64,000 nt of DNA from NCBI RefSeq assembly GCF_024298765.1, contig NZ_CP101210.1; one strand, given 5' to 3'. Both the position numbers and the translations under genes were made by a program. Every line of letters starts with the position of its first letter. Within the stretch, counting starts at the first letter, position 1. Origin of the DNA: Escherichia coli (GTDB lineage: Bacteria; Pseudomonadota; Gammaproteobacteria; Enterobacterales; Enterobacteriaceae). The notes under the pieces were generated by a model. It saw nothing but the letters and a program-made list of their open reading frames with translations. It was not told where the DNA came from and searched no databases. Of the stretch, positions 1,224-31,109 are shown one piece after another.

Positions 1224-1892
1224 TTACTTTTTGTTAACGTCAAACATGGTGGCATCGGTCGCCATGTCATCAATAACTTGTTTAATATTTTCGAAAGCCA
1301 TTGGCGTACTTTCGTTATTCAGGTCTTTACCTTCGCCCTGACGAACGACTTTGATAACCGGTTTATTAGTCGCTGCATCAATCAGCTCACCTTCAAAATA
1401 CAGGCGAGTATCCATGGTACGGTGGCCCGTCGCCATTTGCGTCCCCGCAACCACTAATGCAACAGGAACCACTTCATAGAATTGCAGCCCTTCTTTGCTG
1501 GTATCTACACCGGTAATGGCCCCACGGAAAATCAGACTACGCGGCCCAGCGGTGGTAACCAGTGGTTTACGCTGCGCAATCGCTTCTTTCATTTCGGTGT
1601 TGGTATAACTCAAAATTTTATCCAGAACTTTCTGCCCTACCTGGGTAGATGGTTTCGGTACCGGATAATAAGTGACTGGGTTCCAGACGATGCTGTCATA
1701 TTTGCTTTGATCAAAACTCGGGTCTACCCAACGTAAAACAGGTTTACCTGTTGCTGAGGTTGTTTCTTTTAAATCAGAGTAATTGTTTAAAAAACCAGAA
1801 TATTTATCTGGCTGGGTGATTTTAGAGGCACAACCAGACAGAGCCAACAAGCCGCATAAAGCTGCAACTTTCGCAATTGATGTGGTACGCAT
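1224..1892 (-). CDS. ydcL: Lipoprotein YdcL
   Basis: 222-aa ORF with lipoprotein signal peptide and lipobox (LALSGC); synteny downstream of tehB. Confidence 0.85.
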   Translation of the reverse strand: MRTTSIAKVAALCGLLALSGCASKITQPDKYSGFLNNYSDLKETTSATGKPVLRWVDPSFDQSKYDSIVWNPVTYYPVPKPSTQVGQKVLDKILSYTNTEMKEAIAQRKPLVTTAGPRSLIFRGAITGVDTSKEGLQFYEVVPVALVVAGTQMATGHRTMDTRLYFEGELIDAATNKPVIKVVRQGEGKDLNNESTPMAFENIKQVIDDMATDATMFDVNKK

Positions 1893-2005: not shown

Positions 2006-2068
2006 GACATAGTCAATGCCGAAAAAGACATAGTCAATGCCGAAAAAGGGGCTGCCGAAAAAGGGGCT
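2006..2068. repeat. Tandem 21-bp direct repeat (gacatagtcaatgccgaaaaa x2) plus partial third unit, nested in inverted repeat agcccctttt/aaaaggggct
   Basis: Read directly in the tehB-ydcL intergenic region. Confidence 0.85.
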
Positions 2069-2230
2069 AAGTCAATCATCAGTAGTTAAATTTCAGTAAG
2101 TTAAGCTGCTAAAAAATTTCGACTACTGTGATTAATTTCACATCCATTCGATAAAAAATATGCTTACCGAAAAGAAGAACAGTAAACCATCTCAGCGTGG
2201 GGAATTTTCACGCGCCTTGTTCCTAGCGGG

Positions 2231-5874: not shown

Positions 5875-7530
5875 CTAACTCATCACGCGGTCGTCAACAT
5901 ACTGACGTTTATCCGGCGCTGGCGGGAAATACTGATAGAGCCATGTTTCACTGATAGCGTCGCCCTGACAACGCAGATACATCCGCATATCGACCGGATC
6001 AGTGGAGTCCGAAGTCGGATACCAGTCAAACTGAATACGATAACCATCAATGGGTTCAATATAGAGAATTTCGATTTGCTTCGCTTCCCCACTGGAAAGC
6101 GTAATCACCGGCTCAATGCCTTTTGGCGCGGCAGCTTTCAGATCACCACCAACGAAATCGACGGCAAAACGACGCGCCCATTTTTCGGGATAGTGTTCAC
6201 CTGGCGCCCAACCTTCCGGGAAACCGCCCATGCCGGTACGCGTCGCCATAACGCGCGCTAATGGGCAATGAACAGGCGGTTGCGCACTCCAGTACAGACG
6301 ATACTGGAATGCAAACTCATCACCCGCTTTCACAGCTTTTTCTGGCTGCCAGAAGCAGACAATGTTATCCAGCGTTTCGCCCGTTGTTGGGATTTCCATC
6401 AGGCCGATGGTGCCCTTACCCCACTTGTTACGCGGCTCCACCCACAGACTTGGGCGTTTGTTATACCAGCCCATAATGTCCTGATAATGGGAGAAATCAC
6501 GATCCAGTTGCAATAAACCAAACCCTTTCGGGTTGTTGTCGGTGTAAGCATTGAACTGCAATTTTTGCGGATTATTCAGCGGACGACAAATCCACTCGCC
6601 ATTGCCCCGCCACATGGACAGACGATCTGAGTCATGGATTTGCGGATGAATGGTGTCGCACATCCGACGTTCATTAGTACCGCAGCTGAACATGCTGGTC
6701 ATCGGCGCAATGCCCAGCTGTTTAATGTCTTTGCGCGCATACAGGTGATTTTCCACATCCATAATCACCTGACTTTTCTCACAATGGATAGTGAACTTAT
6801 AGGCACCAGTAATGCTGGCGCTATCGAGCAACGCATAAACGGTAAAGGTGGTTGCCCCCGGTTTTACCGTATCAAACCAGAAGTCAGTAAAGTCGGGGAA
6901 CTCTTCTTTACTGTCGGTGTAAGTGTCGATCGCCAGGCCGCGGGCCGACAAACCGTATTGATATGTATCATCAACCGCGCGGAAATAACTCGCGCCGAGG
7001 AATGATACGACATCACGGCGCGCCAGTTCGGGGGCTTTAAACACGCGAAAACCGGCAAAACCGAGATCGCTTTGCCCTTCTAATTGTTTGGTATCAACAC
7101 CCGCATCGTTGTATTTGAACAACTCCGGGCGAAAGTGAATTTCACGCGCCAGATGTGTTGCGGGATCAACAGAAAACATACGAACGCGGCGACGGAATCC
7201 CATTCCCATATGGAAGAACTGAGCGTCCAGTTGACGGTTCTCAACGTTATGCCAGAGCGATTTTTCGGCGTCGTATTGAATACTGTTATAAGCCTGCGGC
7301 GTCATTGTCGCCAGAGTGTCAGGTAACGGACGCGGCGCACCACGCCACGCTGTTTGCGCTAAGTCGTGCGCCATTGACTGTAGAATGGAGAAGTCAAAAC
7401 GTTGGGTTTGCCCGTCGGCAATATCAGAATCTGCCGCGAATGCCGCCTGAGAAAAAAGAGAAGCAATGCCGCTGGTACCGCACACGGCGGCCATAGCCAT
7501 TGAACCTTTAATAAATCGTCTACGATCCAT
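5875..7530 (-). CDS. opgD: Glucans biosynthesis protein D (OpgD/MdoD), Tat-exported periplasmic protein
   Basis: 551-aa ORF with twin-arginine signal [32 protein letters not shown]. Confidence 0.95.
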
Positions 7531-26933: not shown

Positions 26934-28274
26934 TCAATGCAACTCATCAAGTTTTCTCATCGCTTGTTCCCGTATTGCGCGCGTCTTACCGTTAAGCGCC
27001 AGCTGGCGGACTAAATCCAGTTCAGGGTTAACAAGCTCTAACGCCAGCAAAGGATCACGTTTCAGCCTCGCCTTTAATACATCAACTGGAAAACGGGGAT
27101 TATTCATCGCCACAATCCACCACTCGGGATCAATTTCTGCCGCCAGTACTGCAGGCGGTGTGTGGCGGTTGTTAAGTGCGCCGAACTTGAAAAATGTGAG
27201 ATTGCTTTTCGCCAGTGTACTCCACCATATACGATCCGGTTGTTTTGCCAGTACATCCAGTTGTGCTAACGCATCGGGTTCTAGTGCATAATAAACACGT
27301 AACGCTTCGTTAACCTGCGCACGGGAACTGTTTTCCTGCCTCAGAAAAAACTTCGCCCAAATATCATTTCGTGGCGTGTTTTGCTGTAATTCCTTTAAGC
27401 CTTGGGAGAGTTCGCATTATGGCAAGATCAAATGTCGCAATGTCTCGTCCTTCAAATGCAGCAACGTTGCCTTCATCCAGCATTTGCAATTCCTGCAATA
27501 ATTCAGGAGAAGACTTAGGGCGAAACAGCGCTTCTTTTTTCATCTGATTACAGACATTCCCTGCTATGCGAATATTGCTTCGCTTAAAAATTTCTTTCAG
27601 AGCATCTTCATCATTTATTAGGCCCCAATAATATGCATCAGGATTTATTATCATCAGCGCTTTTTTGACATTTTCAGTGTCATTTTTGTCACTCGCACGG
27701 ACCATGAATTCACTATTTGTCGAAGATGCAACAACAGGTGCAATTATGTCATTGATAAATATCCCGCGCGCATTAATACTTCCCTTAATCGTAGACGGAT
27801 TATCGTAATATGAGTCGATAAATACCAGTCCACTTGCATTTATCGAACCGGTAATTAACAGTGGTGAATCCGTAACTATATTCGTTGCCGTTACGTTACG
27901 TTACGTTACGTTACGTTACGTTACGTTACGTTACCGAGAATAACCCATGGATTAGAAAGAGAGAAAGTGGAAATATTACCTTTGACTGTCAAATTGCCAA
28001 GAACAATCAATTTTTGATTACTCTCTATATTACCTTCTACCATTAAATCGCCACGATGCACTTTCCAGTCCGATGCAGATAAACCGACGGGGACAAGATT
28101 CACGCTACTGTTGATAGCTTGTTCAACTTGTTGTTTATCTTCAGCGGTAGCCGCAGAAAAAAATGGTTCAATATCAACTGCATTTACAACACATCGAAGT
28201 TCCGCCTGTACTGGAAGACTCAGCATAAACAGGGGAAGTAAACCTATCCAGCTGCAAATCCTGGGCTTAAACAT
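26934..28274 (-). pseudogene. ydbD: Decayed ydbD-like gene for a secreted protein: N-terminal signal-peptide segment, stop inside a pentanucleotide repeat, further frameshift near 27364-27420
   Basis: Three collinear minus-strand coding segments in different frames (28274-27921, 27900-27364, 27417-26934), hand-translated; sits where ydbD lies between ydbC and ynbA. Confidence 0.5.
27889..27933. repeat. Perfect pentanucleotide microsatellite (CGTTA)9; TAACG on the coding strand
   Basis: Read directly: cg + ttacg x8 + ttac; the minus-strand reading frame terminates at TAA inside the array. Confidence 0.95.
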
Positions 28275-28334
28275 ATGCACTCCATGCCATTAAAAAAGAA
28301 TAAATATCCTCCGGCATAGCCGGAGGTTTTTCAA

Positions 28335-29046
28335 ATGCGCCTATAAGGCTCTCTTACCAGCCGCGCCCTAACAGGCGCACACGATCTGACATTTGCATCC
28401 AACTTCGTTACTTACGGCCCGTAAACGGGCTGCCCGGATAGGGAATCGATAACTGCTCTCCCATTTTATCCTCTTCAAGCTGGTGCTTTATGTAATCCTG
28501 TATCTTCGCCGTGTTCTTACCCACCGTATCGACGTAGTACCCTCTGCACCAGAACTCTCTGTTCCTGTATTTGAATTTCAAATCACCAAACTGCTCGTAA
28601 AGCATCAGACTGCTTTTCCCTTTCAGATATCCCATAAAGCCGGATACACTCATTTTGGGCGGGATCTCCACAAGCATATGGATATGATCTGCACAGCATT
28701 CAGCTTCAAGAATCCGTACGCTTTTCCACTCACACAGCTTTCTCAAAATACTGCCTATTGCTCTACGCTTCTCTCTGTAGAACACTTGTCTTCGGTATTT
28801 TGGCGCAAAAACTATGTGATATTTACAGTTCCATCGGGTGTGCGCTAAGCTCTTTTCGTTCCCCATTGGGACCCCCTTTTGATTTCTTGTTTGACACTTG
28901 CAGTTGCCAGACCGCAAGGTGTTTTAACAAATCAAAAGGGGTTTTAATAACTGGCTCAAAGCTGAAAGCTTTCCGGAACCCCCAGCCTAGCTGGGGGTTT
29001 TCTGTGCACAAACAAAAGGGAAATGCATCTTTCCCTTTTGTATATT
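28335..29046 (-). mobile_element. IS200-type insertion sequence (IS200/IS605 family), ends approximate
   Basis: Y1 transposase gene plus upstream hairpins (aacccccagcctagctgggggtt; aaaagggaaatgcatctttccctttt); no terminal inverted repeats expected; ends estimated from ~707-bp size. Confidence 0.8.
28408..28866 (-). CDS. tnpA: IS200 transposase TnpA (Y1 / HUH family)
   Basis: 152 aa from MGNEKSLAHTRWNCKYHIVFAPKYRRQVFY... with HxH motif (HIHMLVEIPP). Confidence 0.9.
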   Translation of the reverse strand: MGNEKSLAHTRWNCKYHIVFAPKYRRQVFYREKRRAIGSILRKLCEWKSVRILEAECCADHIHMLVEIPPKMSVSGFMGYLKGKSSLMLYEQFGDLKFKYRNREFWCRGYYVDTVGKNTAKIQDYIKHQLEEDKMGEQLSIPYPGSPFTGRK

Positions 29047-29048
29047 CG

Positions 29049-29909
29049 TTATTCTCGCGAAATACCGTCCAACGTAGACAACACTTCCTCAGAAAGATGC
29101 AATTTTTCAGCAGCCATATTCTCCCGTAAATGCGCAACAGAAGACGTCCCTGGGATCAGCAAAATATTCGGTGAACGCTGTAACAGCCACGCCAGCGCCA
29201 CCTGCATTGGTGTTGCGCCCAGGCTCGCTGCTACATCCGAAAGTGTGGAGGATTGCAGCGGCGTAAAGCCCCCAAGCGGAAAGAACGGCACGTAGGCAAT
29301 GCCGTCACGAGCCAAAGCATCAATCATTGCGTCATCAGCACGATGAGCAATGTTGTATTCGTTCTGCACACAGACGATTTCGGTAATCTTACGCGCCTCT
29401 GCAACCTGCGTCGGTGTAACGTTGCTCAGACCAATATGTTTTACCAGGCCTTGTTGTTGCATCTCTGCCAGTACGGTCAGGCTGGCTTCAATCGATCCTT
29501 CCGCTGGGCCATGACCATCCCCCATCATAACGCGCAGGTTAACCACATCCAGTGCGCCCAGCCCGAGATTACGTAGATTATCGTGCACCGCTTTTTGCAG
29601 CTCTGCCGGAGAAAATGCGGGCAACCAGGATGCGTCCTCTCCACGCCGCGCACCAATTTTAGTGACAATTGTCAGGTCGTCAGAGTAAGGATAAAGCGCT
29701 TCGCGGATAATCTGATTGGTGACGTGCGGACCATAAAAGTCGCTGGTATCAATATGATTGACGCCCAATGCCAGCGCCTCACGCAGCACGGTTATAGCGA
29801 CGTGGCGATCTCTTGGGGGGCCAAAAACCCCAGGACCTGCCAGTTGCATCGCGCCATAACCAAGACGGTTAACGGATTTTGTACCGAGAGTAAATGTATT
29901 GCTGCTCAT
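29049..29909 (-). CDS. ydbC: Aldo-keto reductase family NAD(P)H-dependent oxidoreductase YdbC
   Basis: ORF 29049..30062; start set at MSSNTFTLGTKSVNRLGYGAMQLAG (286 aa). Confidence 0.9.
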   Translation of the reverse strand: MSSNTFTLGTKSVNRLGYGAMQLAGPGVFGPPRDRHVAITVLREALALGVNHIDTSDFYGPHVTNQIIREALYPYSDDLTIVTKIGARRGEDASWLPAFSPAELQKAVHDNLRNLGLGALDVVNLRVMMGDGHGPAEGSIEASLTVLAEMQQQGLVKHIGLSNVTPTQVAEARKITEIVCVQNEYNIAHRADDAMIDALARDGIAYVPFFPLGGFTPLQSSTLSDVAASLGATPMQVALAWLLQRSPNILLIPGTSSVAHLRENMAAEKLHLSEEVLSTLDGISRE

Positions 29910-30139: not shown

Positions 30140-30730
30140 TTACTGTTTCGGTCGCAGATTCTCATCAAATACCAGGCGCTGCCTGCCAGGTTCAACTTCC
30201 CGCAATGGCTCAACTTGATGCAACGTCTGCTTACTGCGTGTCACCAGCACCTGATACTCATGCGTGCCCTGCTTTTTCCATGCCAGTTCCTGCTCACTAA
30301 GTTCACGAATCGCTTTTGCCGGGCTGCCGACAATCAGGTAATTAGCAGGCATTTCTGCTTTGGCTTTCACAAATGCGGAAGCGCCAACAATGCTGTTCTC
30401 GCCAATCACCGCACCGTCCATCACTACCGCGTTCATACCCACTAATGCATTGCGGCGGATAATGCAGCCGTGAAGGATAGCGCTATGACCAATATGCCCA
30501 TCTTCTTCCACGACAGTATCCTGATCGGGAAAACCGTGCATAACGCAATTATCCTGAATGTTCGCGCCATCTTTCACCACGATACGACCGAAATCGCCAC
30601 GCAGGCTGGTATTTGGCCCAACGTACACGCCCTTGCCGAGAATAACATCGCCGATCAATACCGCTGTCGGATGGACAAAACTCTCTTCTGGCACAAACGG
30701 AGTCAGACCGTCTATCTGATAAATTGGCAT
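30140..30730 (-). CDS. paaY: Phenylacetate-pathway hexapeptide-repeat protein PaaY
   Basis: 196-aa [32 protein letters not shown]... Confidence 0.9.
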
Positions 30731-30880
30731 AACGCCTCCTGTTCAATATTCAAGCCGCCAAAACGTTGAAAATACAGGCTTCCCGGCGCAGGCAATTCAC
30801 CGACCGAGGTTTCACCTTTTTCACTAACGAACGCTAAAGCAGCAGGCGCTACGCGCTGATAAAGTTTGCCGATAAAGGTT
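30712..30880 (-). pseudogene. paaX: Probable 3' remnant of paaX (C-terminal ~55 codons only)
   Basis: Minus-strand ORF ends 19 nt into paaY as in a paaX-paaY operon; upstream part of the ORF is antisense to the feaR remnant; boundary approximate. Confidence 0.45.
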
Positions 30881-31071
30881 TGGTAGTCGCGCAATATATC
30901 CGTAACCGTCGTCTCGATTTTTGTGCAGATGCGATTCGCCATGCCGCAGATGATGAAAAACTGGCAGGCATTGGCTTTCATTGGGGATTTTCCGACCAGA
31001 GTCATTTTTCAACGGTATTTAAGCAACGCTTTGGGATGACGCCAGGCGAGTATCGACGTAAATTCCGCTAA
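30880..31071 (+). pseudogene. feaR: 3' remnant of an AraC-family regulator, probably feaR (C-terminal HTH only)
   Basis: 63-aa ORF ending ...GFSDQSHFSTVFKQRFGMTPGEYRRKFR, a typical AraC C-terminal helix; convergent with ydbL as feaR is. Confidence 0.5.
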
Positions 31072-31109
31072 CTAATTCGCGTTGCATGTACAGCAACGCG
31101 AATTAGTTA
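31070..31109. terminator. Long perfect hairpin between the feaR remnant and ydbL
   Basis: ~17-bp stem ctaactaattcgcgttgc / gcaacgcgaattagtt. Confidence 0.6.

Follow-up and report, generated by a model that had tools for sequence, protein, structure and literature searches.

The interval between pdxI (ydbC) and ydbD in the DNA analysed here, a stretch of 64,000 nt of Escherichia coli (contig NZ_CP101210.1; hereafter the window), holds, with a probability that we put at roughly 90%, a single intact IS200C element that inserted, co-oriented with pdxI, within the T-run of this gene's predicted terminator (Table 1). The copy as such is ordinary and already annotated: in RefSeq the identical DNA bears the label 'IS200/IS605-like element IS200C family transposase', and the name IS200C is the RefSeq/PGAP label of the identical protein, WP_000526135.1, which is encoded here and in copies at other loci. 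The upstream gene is annotated as pdxI in strain 104 (NZ_CP029164.1), where the DNA is 100% identical. A first-pass annotation of the window had recognized a 152-aa IS200-type transposase with its characteristic upstream hairpins, and both are borne out by profile searches (Pfam, E = 3.8e-38; STnc490, 146 bits). The span that it gave, 28300-29051, does contain a real element, but the element itself occupies 28299..29009 and the earlier span hence takes in the putative native terminator.

Table 1. Features of the pdxI-ydbD interval, in window coordinates and in the direction of transcription.
Feature	Position	Strand	Description	Basis
pdxI (ydbC) CDS	29909..29049	minus	286 aa, stop TAA 29051..29049	Pfam Aldo_ket_red, E = 1.3e-49
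Native pdxI terminator-like hairpin	29041..29012	minus	ACAAAAGGGAAA-GATGCA-TTTCCCTTTTGT, then T-run	left flank of IS200C
IS200C	29009..28299	minus	711 bp, GTGCACAG...GGAGGATATTTATT	empty/occupied comparison, ends common to other copies
IS200C left-end (LE) hairpin	28999..28977	minus	AACCCCCAGC-TAG-GCTGGGGGTT, conserved GAAAA before it	pattern search, fold
tnpA 5'UTR structured region	28999..28876	minus	LE hairpin, small hairpin, Shine-Dalgarno-sequestering stem-loop	Rfam RF01405
tnpA	28866..28408	minus	152-aa intact Y1 HUH transposase	Pfam PF01797 (Y1_Tnp), E = 3.8e-38
IS200C right end (RE)	28331..28299	minus	GAAAAA + hairpin CCTCCGGC-TAT-GCCGGAGG (28326..28308) + 9-nt tail ATATTTATT (28307..28299)	
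Right flank	28298..28275	minus	distal T-run CTTTTTT (28298..28292) and ydbD ribosome-binding region, 24 nt	collinear with empty sites
ydbD (DUF2773/bactofilin-like) pseudogene	28274..26934	minus	ATG at 28274	BLAST against intact ydbD, strain ST70 (NZ_CP102244.1, a close strain with an empty site)

The ends of the element were fixed by comparison with five empty alleles of the pdxI site, in K-12 and four other strains. Occupied and empty sites differ by exactly 711 bp, with target bases neither lost nor duplicated, in agreement with the earlier statement that the element inserted without target-site duplication. In the alignment, the empty site reads TAA-CGAATAT-ACAAAAGGGAAA-GATGCA-TTTCCCTTTTGT-TT followed by CTTTTTTAATGG, and the 711-bp element lies between these two parts; the ancestral site thus consists of the stop codon, seven nucleotides, the hairpin and TT on one side of the insertion point, and of CTTTTTT, 17 nucleotides and the ydbD ATG on the other. 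With the element at this point, the pdxI hairpin and the first 8 nt of its tail remain with ydbC, on the LE side, and the proposal that the element separates ydbC from its terminator does not hold. The ends are uncertain by at most two T, with 29011..28301 fitting equally well, because T occurs at the junctions in both the element and the flank. Between the stop codon and the first nucleotide of the element (29009), which had been thought to be contiguous, lie 39 nt containing the pdxI hairpin and TTTTGTTT. On the other side, the start of ydbD does follow just downstream, at a distance of 24 nt (from the element end at 28299 to the ATG) and not of about 60 nt. A non-templated G at the junction was considered and rejected, the G being a native polymorphism (TTTTGTTT versus TTTTTTT in K-12) that is present in non-K-12 empty sites.

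The comparison with K-12 that the first-pass annotation had recommended also shows that occupancy is not universal. The pdxI-ydbD site is uninterrupted in 4,345 of 5,426 complete E. coli genomes, and the LE junction of the occupied site is found in 62 (~1%). The 30 full-length matches listed for this copy agree with it at 100% of 861 bp, an identity that may point to one insertion event behind the 62 occupied genomes. The strains that carry the copy have 7-13 matching places per chromosome, and IS200C places number roughly 13,000 across the 5,426 genomes. GC skew is negative along the whole plus strand of the window, by which measure the IS200C top strand is the G-rich strand and the lagging-strand template. 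The downstream gene has been broken by a (GTAAC)9 expansion (27934..27890) and an internal deletion of ~980 bp (near 27395..27380), and in the identical DNA of strain 104 its annotation reads 'frameshifted; internal stop'. Neither 28150..29150 nor the empty site gave a sigma-70-like promoter in a crude scan, which lends no support to a promoter effect; promoter or polar effects of IS200C on ydbD are possible.

At the empty site, the pdxI hairpin comprises a 12-bp stem, a 6-nt loop and the tail TTCTTTTTTA, and starts 7 nt past the stop codon. It has the make-up of an intrinsic terminator, a stem-loop with a U-tract lying 3' of the stop in the sense orientation, scores as terminator-like when read in the direction of pdxI (empty locus L094), and occurs at all the empty sites examined, those of K-12 and of four further strains. 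Its folding energy is -10.8 kcal/mol as DNA (z = -5.5) and -17.2 kcal/mol as RNA (z = -4.6), and we predict the hairpin at 29041..29012 to be the native intrinsic terminator of pdxI. The occupied site retains this hairpin together with UUUUGUUU, while the distal U6 is displaced, and the extended stem of the hairpin shares its base with the proximal T-tract TTTTGTTT (29017..29010). A simple scanner gives no pdxI-sense terminator call at the hairpin of the occupied site, because the extended stem consumes TTTTGT and the distal T6 has been moved 711 bp off; pdxI termination could therefore be weakened.

In the first-pass annotation, the original ydbC terminator was a different hairpin, cctccggcatagccggagg (28308..28326), and the element had come to lie between the ydbC stop and this native structure, which would now be cut off from ydbC. 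The hairpin does exist, it abuts the element end and is followed by T-rich sequence, and a terminator-like score is obtained on either strand when the right flank is included, yet the reading is now barely credible. None of the five empty sites (K-12 and four others) contains this hairpin, and another one, found in all of them, lies between the ydbC stop and the element; the element does adjoin a native hairpin, but on its left side and not on its right. Furthermore, the hairpin and its tail ATATTTATT recur without change in 6/6 further complete IS200C copies, which were examined at unrelated loci and have variable flanks beyond, and the hairpin is conserved in IS200-group elements of other genera. 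Its pairing is 100% in a set of 20 elements that span several phyla, and two of the pairs show compensatory substitutions; one pair occurs as four pair types, and 0/500 shuffles matched the observed covariation score. Lastly, the 'U-run' described after the hairpin is tttttc on the plus strand, opposite to ydbC, and complements the conserved GAAAAA found ahead of the RE hairpin. As judged from these sequence comparisons, the hairpin at 28326..28308 is the element's own right end, not native DNA.

The composition of the element places it in the IS200 group of the IS200/IS605 family: it encodes a Y1 HUH TnpA, its tnpA (459 bp) is the sole credible ORF in the 711 bp, with neither tnpB nor iscB, it has no terminal inverted repeats and instead carries subterminal hairpins at each end, both on the minus strand, and it made no target duplication. 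The PF01797 match spans profile positions 2-121 of 121, the protein aligns with solved TnpA structures (2ec2, 4e-23; IS608 2a6m, 4e-19), and in the 2ec2 alignment the HUH stretch (DHIHM) and the Tyr of RGYY are conserved. The stems of the two ends are alike (CCCCCAGC/GCTGGGGG at LE versus CCTCCGGC/GCCGGAGG at RE). The LE hairpin, element nt 11-33, is the counterpart of the bidirectional terminator at nt 12-34 of Salmonella IS200, which blocks ~85% of impinging transcription (PMC4513863, PMC5435999). It is also the first helix of a match to the Rfam model STnc490 (RF01405) that covers model positions 1-124 of 124 with 146.4 bits (gathering score 56; E = 2.3e-31). Roles for the Shine-Dalgarno-sequestering stem-loop and for the antisense sRNA art200 have been described in Salmonella IS200 (PMC4513863) and, by analogy, art200 would be encoded opposite the tnpA 5'UTR, on the plus strand of the window. 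A weak Rfam match to snoR118 (E = 0.84) was set aside as chance.

The placement of this copy recurs at other loci. Eight E. coli IS200C sites were examined, taken singly from RefSeq matches, and the copies after tkt, fdnI, galU, plaP and ydgA each lie behind the hairpin and T-run of the gene, co-oriented with it. The K-12 empty site matches at galU except for one homopolymer T; the element ends are not fixable at fdnI and ydgA, where the K-12 regions diverge downstream of the hairpin, or at plaP-sbcB, where K-12 has extra genes. Among the matches listed from a TnpA scan of genome contigs, E. coli, Salmonella and Yersinia were not represented. In 53/64 independent IS200-group insertions a terminator-like hairpin ends 2-10 nt before the element. 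The background for the same hairpin placement is 0.33% at random positions and rises to 2.0% behind TT and to 4.4% behind a T-rich pentamer, so that the observed 83% represents a ~19-fold excess over the T-rich background (p = 5.5e-61). The insertion point has its mode at 6-7 nt past the last G:C pair of the hairpin, T occupies positions -1/-2 in 62-63 of the 64 sites, and a co-oriented ORF ends within 150 nt upstream in 44/63. A clear hairpin is missing at ~17% of the 64 sites, which nonetheless have TT at -1/-2. The GAAAA motif is conserved 5' of both subterminal hairpins. Placement of the IS200 group behind terminators is already known statistically from a 2025-26 preprint: 40.2% of 20,314 IS200-family copies have a terminator just upstream, outside the element, against ~0.4-7% in 11 rows of its table for other IS families (IS1182, 7.1%; IS1595, 4.1%; IS3, 3.0%; bioRxiv 10.1101/2025.07.22.666184). 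A full-text search of the literature found no explicit statement of IS200 insertion into terminator T-tracts, yielding only these statistics and an anecdotal report of IS1541 between pheL and pheA in Yersinia.

By analogy with the 'peel and paste' transposition of IS608 and ISDra2, TnpA would excise the element as a single-stranded circle and paste it 3' of a T-rich single-stranded target, which would be recognized through the conserved GAAAA on the 5' side of each subterminal hairpin; the preferred context would be a terminator hairpin with a T-tail, as it appears to be for most members of the IS200 group. The conserved GAAAA, the T-rich contexts of cleavage and the orientation on the lagging-strand template lend this scheme indirect support. 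At the pdxI site, termination is expected to be largely preserved and residual read-through to run into the LE hairpin; given the ~85% stop seen in Salmonella IS200, tnpA should therefore be almost silent. The RE hairpin with AUAUUUAUUCUUUUUU would add a terminator-like site 24 nt upstream of ydbD, which is expected to be isolated from upstream transcription and is a pseudogene in this lineage regardless.

The association of IS200-group elements with terminators lends itself to more than one explanation. Their transposases may actively home to intrinsic terminators, a reading to which we give just short of an even chance: on the lagging-strand template, an extruded terminator hairpin with 6-9 T-rich nt behind it would mimic the RE (hairpin plus ATATTTATT) and in this way offer its T-run to the GAAAA guide, so that the element would be pasted near the end of a host transcript. 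The association could also stem from purifying selection alone, to which we give somewhat below even odds. TnpA would then need no more than a short T-rich target and only harmless insertions, in quiet spots behind terminators, would survive, which makes the hairpin association a survivorship pattern. Insertions into most T-runs would be purged, as these fall within genes or promoters; the sites with TT at -1/-2 and no clear hairpin fit such a process, and the preprint cited above takes the pattern to reflect a niche in which expression of the transposase is kept low. Selection accounts less readily for the tight setting of the insertion point and for the far lower values of the other IS families in those 11 rows of the preprint's table (~0.4-7% against 40% for IS200); the enrichment even over T-rich pentamers (83% versus 4.4%) also speaks against it, although all three observations are compatible with selection too.

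It is unlikely that this particular copy has been retained for a benefit to the host, either as a source of the 5'tnpA and art200 regulatory RNAs or as an insulator between pdxI and ydbD. Its 5'UTR matches the Rfam model over the full length, the 5'tnpA RNA of Salmonella controls invF along with many further genes (PMC5435999; 10.1101/2024.06.26.600842), and the 30 matches listed are identical over 861 bp. Such identity, however, may just reflect recent clonal descent, and with 7-13 matching places per chromosome the pdxI-ydbD copy is not special.

For the window itself the finding means little, as it concerns a routine copy beside a gene that is dead in this lineage. The corrected anatomy has a wider bearing, since the same mistaking of the RE for a terminator is possible for annotation pipelines and readers elsewhere. 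The site furthermore illustrates at base level the rule that IS200-group elements lie 2-10 nt after terminator hairpins in several phyla, which agrees with the large-scale statistical report (10.1101/2025.07.22.666184) and suggests a testable targeting mechanism. An IS200 insertion turns one terminator-like site into three, formed by the host, LE and RE hairpins, and with three such sites in a row the downstream gene is likelier to be insulated than activated. If IS200-group transposases do home to terminators, the near-silence and long persistence of IS200 would be built into its choice of target and would not result from selection on random insertions.

Among known systems, the closest likeness is to Salmonella IS200, with which E. 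coli IS200C shares a size of ~710 bp, a 152-aa tnpA, the LE hairpin, the Shine-Dalgarno-sequestering stem-loop and the RE hairpin, as well as the lack of inverted repeats and of target duplication; there is no structural difference. Besides length, the sole contrast of this copy with IS200C and IS200 is its lineage-specific site between pdxI and ydbD (62/5,426). At 711 bp, the copy is longer than Salmonella IS200, for which 707 bp is quoted (PMC4513863). The two-T ambiguity moves the ends without changing the length, and therefore does not explain this difference. IS608 of H. pylori and ISDra2 of D. radiodurans share with IS200C the Y1 HUH transposase, subterminal hairpins on the same strand, absence of target duplication, insertion 3' of a short target that abuts the LE, and a top strand on the lagging-strand template, the latter reportedly described for the IS200/IS605 family by Ton-Hoang and colleagues in 2010. 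These elements, however, carry tnpB and target TTAC or TTGAT, whereas IS200C has no tnpB and a T-run as target, usually with a host hairpin before it; by analogy, its guide/target pairing would join GAAAA to the T-run.

Group IIC introns resemble the IS200 group in inserting just after intrinsic-terminator stem-loops, and Robart, Seo and Zimmerly are said to have described in 2007 their insertion behind terminator stem-loops at the 3' ends of genes. Such a site does the least damage to the host and gives the least expression of the element. The likeness is one of function only, as a ribozyme with a reverse transcriptase is a wholly different element with a different chemistry. Insertion 3' of stem-loops beyond what the target sequence accounts for is likewise seen in the IS200 group (53/64 versus 4.4%) and, if homing proves true, IS200 would be the DNA-transposon counterpart of these introns. 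The TnpA_REP proteins of REPtrons are related Y1 transposases that recognize host hairpins (REP), and REPs resemble the subterminal hairpins of the IS200/IS605 family (PMC3333891). REPtrons, however, are immobile, confined to a single locus and flanked by BIMEs, whereas IS200C is mobile and the hairpins that flank it are unique gene terminators, not REPs.

The first-pass annotation placed an IS200-type element beside ydbC (pdxI here), and this identification stands: the transposase domain, the full-model STnc490 match and the RefSeq annotation of identical DNA establish a real and already known IS200C element, lying, like all genes relevant to the locus, on the minus strand of the window (see table). 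Many RefSeq chromosomes are 100% identical to 28250..29110 across 861/861 bases (megablast), and in these the gene annotated as 'IS200/IS605-like element IS200C family transposase', from which the name used here is taken, has pdxI and a DUF2773 (ydbD) gene as neighbours. The transposase aligns with solved TnpA structures (2ec2 at 4e-23, IS608 2a6m at 4e-19), and its HUH stretch and tyrosine are conserved in the 2ec2 alignment. The element has all testable traits of the IS200 group: its TnpA is of the Y1 HUH type, tnpB and inverted repeats are lacking, there are two subterminal hairpins, the target is not duplicated, and the 5'UTR has the IS200 structure. The element is hence a known kind of feature, with its anatomy now corrected. 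The Rfam match covers the left-end (LE) hairpin and the 5'UTR stem-loop on the tnpA-sense strand; art200 (formerly STnc490) has been described as antisense to the tnpA 5'UTR (PMC4513863), and what the Rfam model describes seems to be the structure of the sense strand.

Features of the pdxI-ydbD locus, in window coordinates
Feature	Coordinates	Strand	Basis
pdxI (ydbC), aldo/keto reductase, 286 aa	29909..29049	minus	Pfam E=1.3e-49
pdxI stop codon TAA	29051..29049	minus	ORF list
Native predicted pdxI terminator, 12-bp-stem hairpin + T-run	29041..29012	minus	Empty vs occupied site
Structured IS200 5'UTR region, 124 nt, upstream of tnpA	28999..28876	minus	Rfam STnc490, full model, 146 bits
Y1 HUH transposase tnpA, 152 aa	28866..28408	minus	Pfam PF01797 E=3.8e-38
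Perfect (GTAAC)9 array in ydbD	27934..27890	minus-strand reading	Comparison with intact ydbD
ydbD internal deletion, about 980 bp	near 27395..27380		BLAST vs strain ST70

Comparison with the K-12 locus, proposed in the first-pass annotation, shows an uninterrupted site there. In K-12 the intergenic sequence is TAA-CGAATAT-ACAAAAGGGAAAGATGCATTTCCCTTTTTTTCTTTTTTAATGGCATGGAGTGCAT-ATG(ydbD), all four non-K-12 empty sites compared read ...CATTTCCCTTTTGTTTCTTTTTTAATGG..., and the occupied site in the window reads ...CATTTCCCTTTTGTTT|GTGCACAGAAAACCCCC...CCGGAGGATATTTATT|CTTTTTTAATGG. Occupied and empty sites differ by exactly 711 bp (29009..28299), with zero bases duplicated or lost, bearing out the earlier proposal of insertion without target duplication; the ends 29011..28301 are equally possible, since two junction T can be assigned to either side. 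The same comparison identifies the native predicted pdxI terminator (DNA fold -10.8 kcal/mol, z=-5.5; RNA fold -17.2 kcal/mol), which a simple scanner calls terminator-like in the pdxI sense at the empty site, with the tail TTCTTTTTTA. In the window, pdxI is still followed directly by this hairpin and TTTTGTTT, which lie to the left of the element, so that the insertion does not, as had been supposed, part the ydbC stop codon from its terminator.

The cctccgg hairpin cctccggcatagccggagg (28308..28326), previously read as the original ydbC terminator, is instead the element's own right end (RE). None of the five empty sites has it, and with an identical 9-nt tail, ATATTTATT, it ends each of six other complete IS200C copies at other loci, beyond which the flanks are unrelated. 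It also occurs in IS200 relatives from Citrobacter, Vibrio, Erwinia, Edwardsiella, Budvicia and the Firmicutes; in an alignment of 20 right ends, 160/160 pair cells are paired, four pair types occur at one of the stem positions, and the covariation score is reached by 0/500 shuffles. The LE hairpin, CCCCCAGC-TAG-GCTGGGGG, closely resembles it (CCTCCGGC-TAT-GCCGGAGG), and GAAAA precedes both. Two subterminal hairpins on one strand are a hallmark of the IS200/IS605 family. Absence from empty sites, presence in other copies, covariation and likeness to LE together refute the central reading of the earlier annotation, and its 'U-run' is a plus-strand T-run complementary to GAAAAA, on the wrong strand for ydbC.

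Placement behind a terminator is not peculiar to pdxI. In E. coli, other IS200C copies immediately follow tkt, fdnI, galU, plaP and ydgA, each in the orientation of the gene and right behind its own hairpin and T-run; at galU, comparison with the empty site of K-12 confirms the hairpin as host DNA. Among 64 independent sites (8 from E. coli and 56 further IS200-group loci chosen among at least 80 from a scan with each species represented by one genome), a strict terminator-like hairpin has its 3' arm ending 2-10 nt before the element's first base in 53 (83%), and several of the other 11 have imperfect hairpins. In E. coli DNA the same test is passed by 0.33% of random positions, 2.0% of positions after TT and 4.4% after a T-rich pentamer (53/64 vs 4.4%, binomial p=5.5e-61). 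In the flank preceding the element, positions -1 and -2 are T in 62-63 of the 64 sites and positions -4 and -5 in 54, the commonest insertion point being 6-7 nt past the last G:C pair. At 44/63 sites a same-strand open frame, 100 codons or longer, ends no more than 150 nt upstream, and a divergent frame alone is found at 1/63. A recent preprint reports the same pattern statistically, with a terminator upstream and outside in 40.2% of 20,314 IS200-family copies and inside the element in 0.2% (10.1101/2025.07.22.666184), and the anecdotal position of the Yersinia IS1541 between the pheL attenuator and pheA fits as well (PMC3082878). By its placement behind a terminator hairpin, as at the group's other sites, the window copy is a textbook example of the usual niche. 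It departs from the pattern in one respect: ydbD, the gene that follows, runs in the same direction and begins only 24 nt past the element (not ~60 nt, as first estimated), whereas convergent genes flank the element at each of the five other E. coli chromosomal sites.

In one Oscillospiraceae MAG (L040, about 1290..1360), an IS200 relative follows the terminator hairpin of an apparent tRNA gene (...GGTCGCGTGTTCAAGTCACG...), from which the preferred context seems to be any terminator, beyond protein-coding genes. In Enterobacter sp. Bisph1 (L009, about 2064..2105), a second LE-like hairpin (CCCCAGTCAGGCTGGGG) directly follows an IS200 RE, and the LE of that copy is replaced by unrelated sequence; the region may hold remnants of IS200, in tandem or rearranged. 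The plasmid IS200C copies L088 (NZ_OZ547137.1) and L089 (NZ_CP126947.1) have a truncated tnpA annotated as partial, and the left side of L088 lacks the typical hairpin and T-run; they may be older remnants or rearrangement products.

Termination behind pdxI should largely persist, because the hairpin and an 8-nt U-rich tract are retained; at the occupied site the distal U6 is displaced and the scanner no longer calls a pdxI-sense terminator. Leftover read-through would reach the LE hairpin, whose Salmonella IS200 counterpart is a bidirectional terminator halting about 85% of impinging transcripts (PMC4513863; PMC5435999). The RE hairpin with ATATTTATTCTTTTTT scans as a further terminator-like site, and a promoter scan found no sigma-70-like promoter in 28150..29150. 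The expected net effect on ydbD is insulation, not activation.

The LE junction (121-bp probe, covered at least 80%) is present in 62 of 5,426 complete E. coli genomes, and the uninterrupted site (141-bp K-12 probe) is covered in 4,345. Both junctions are 100% identical in the 30 listed occupied genomes, mostly from poultry, pigs and humans, which suggests a single insertion in one lineage. Relative to the intact ydbD of strain ST70 (L094), repeat expansion and deletion together make ydbD a pseudogene in this lineage, and strain 104, identical at this locus, carries it as 'frameshifted; internal stop'. Five intact alleles have only GTAACGTGAC in place of (GTAAC)9, whose additional 35 nt cause a frameshift and a stop codon immediately following ...LGNVT; the deletion junction shows about 16 nt of overlap between two BLAST segments. 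Pentanucleotide microsatellites of this length are unusual in E. coli, and the array might act as a switch prone to slippage or might just reflect the decay of a dead gene. Upstream of pdxI (about 30140..31100; 5891..6822 in comparison locus L002), the strain 104 annotation leaves only paaY and a paaX fragment, adjoining a helix-turn-helix gene fragment and then ydbL, without ydbA or the other genes of the phenylacetate (paa) operon; K-12 has ydbA upstream of pdxI, and strain ST70 an intact paaK-paaX-paaY-pdxI.

The GC skew of the plus strand is negative throughout the window, making the element's top strand the G-rich strand and thus the lagging-strand template. By the IS608/ISDra2 paradigm, TnpA would excise a single-stranded circle and insert it into single-stranded DNA, 3' of a short target. 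IS608 and ISDra2 read their target through bases 5' of the hairpin foot; by analogy, the IS200C counterpart would be the conserved A-run, complementary to the T-rich target and the T-rich RE. Two explanations of the association with terminators appear about equally probable. An extruded terminator hairpin followed by 6-9 T-rich nt may mimic the element's own RE and be chosen as target, and such extrusion would leave the T-run single-stranded; alternatively, only insertions behind terminators may be harmless and survive. The possibility of wider reach is active terminator homing by the IS200 TnpA. Group IIC introns also insert after terminators, and IS200C, although unrelated to them, resembles them in this choice of target.
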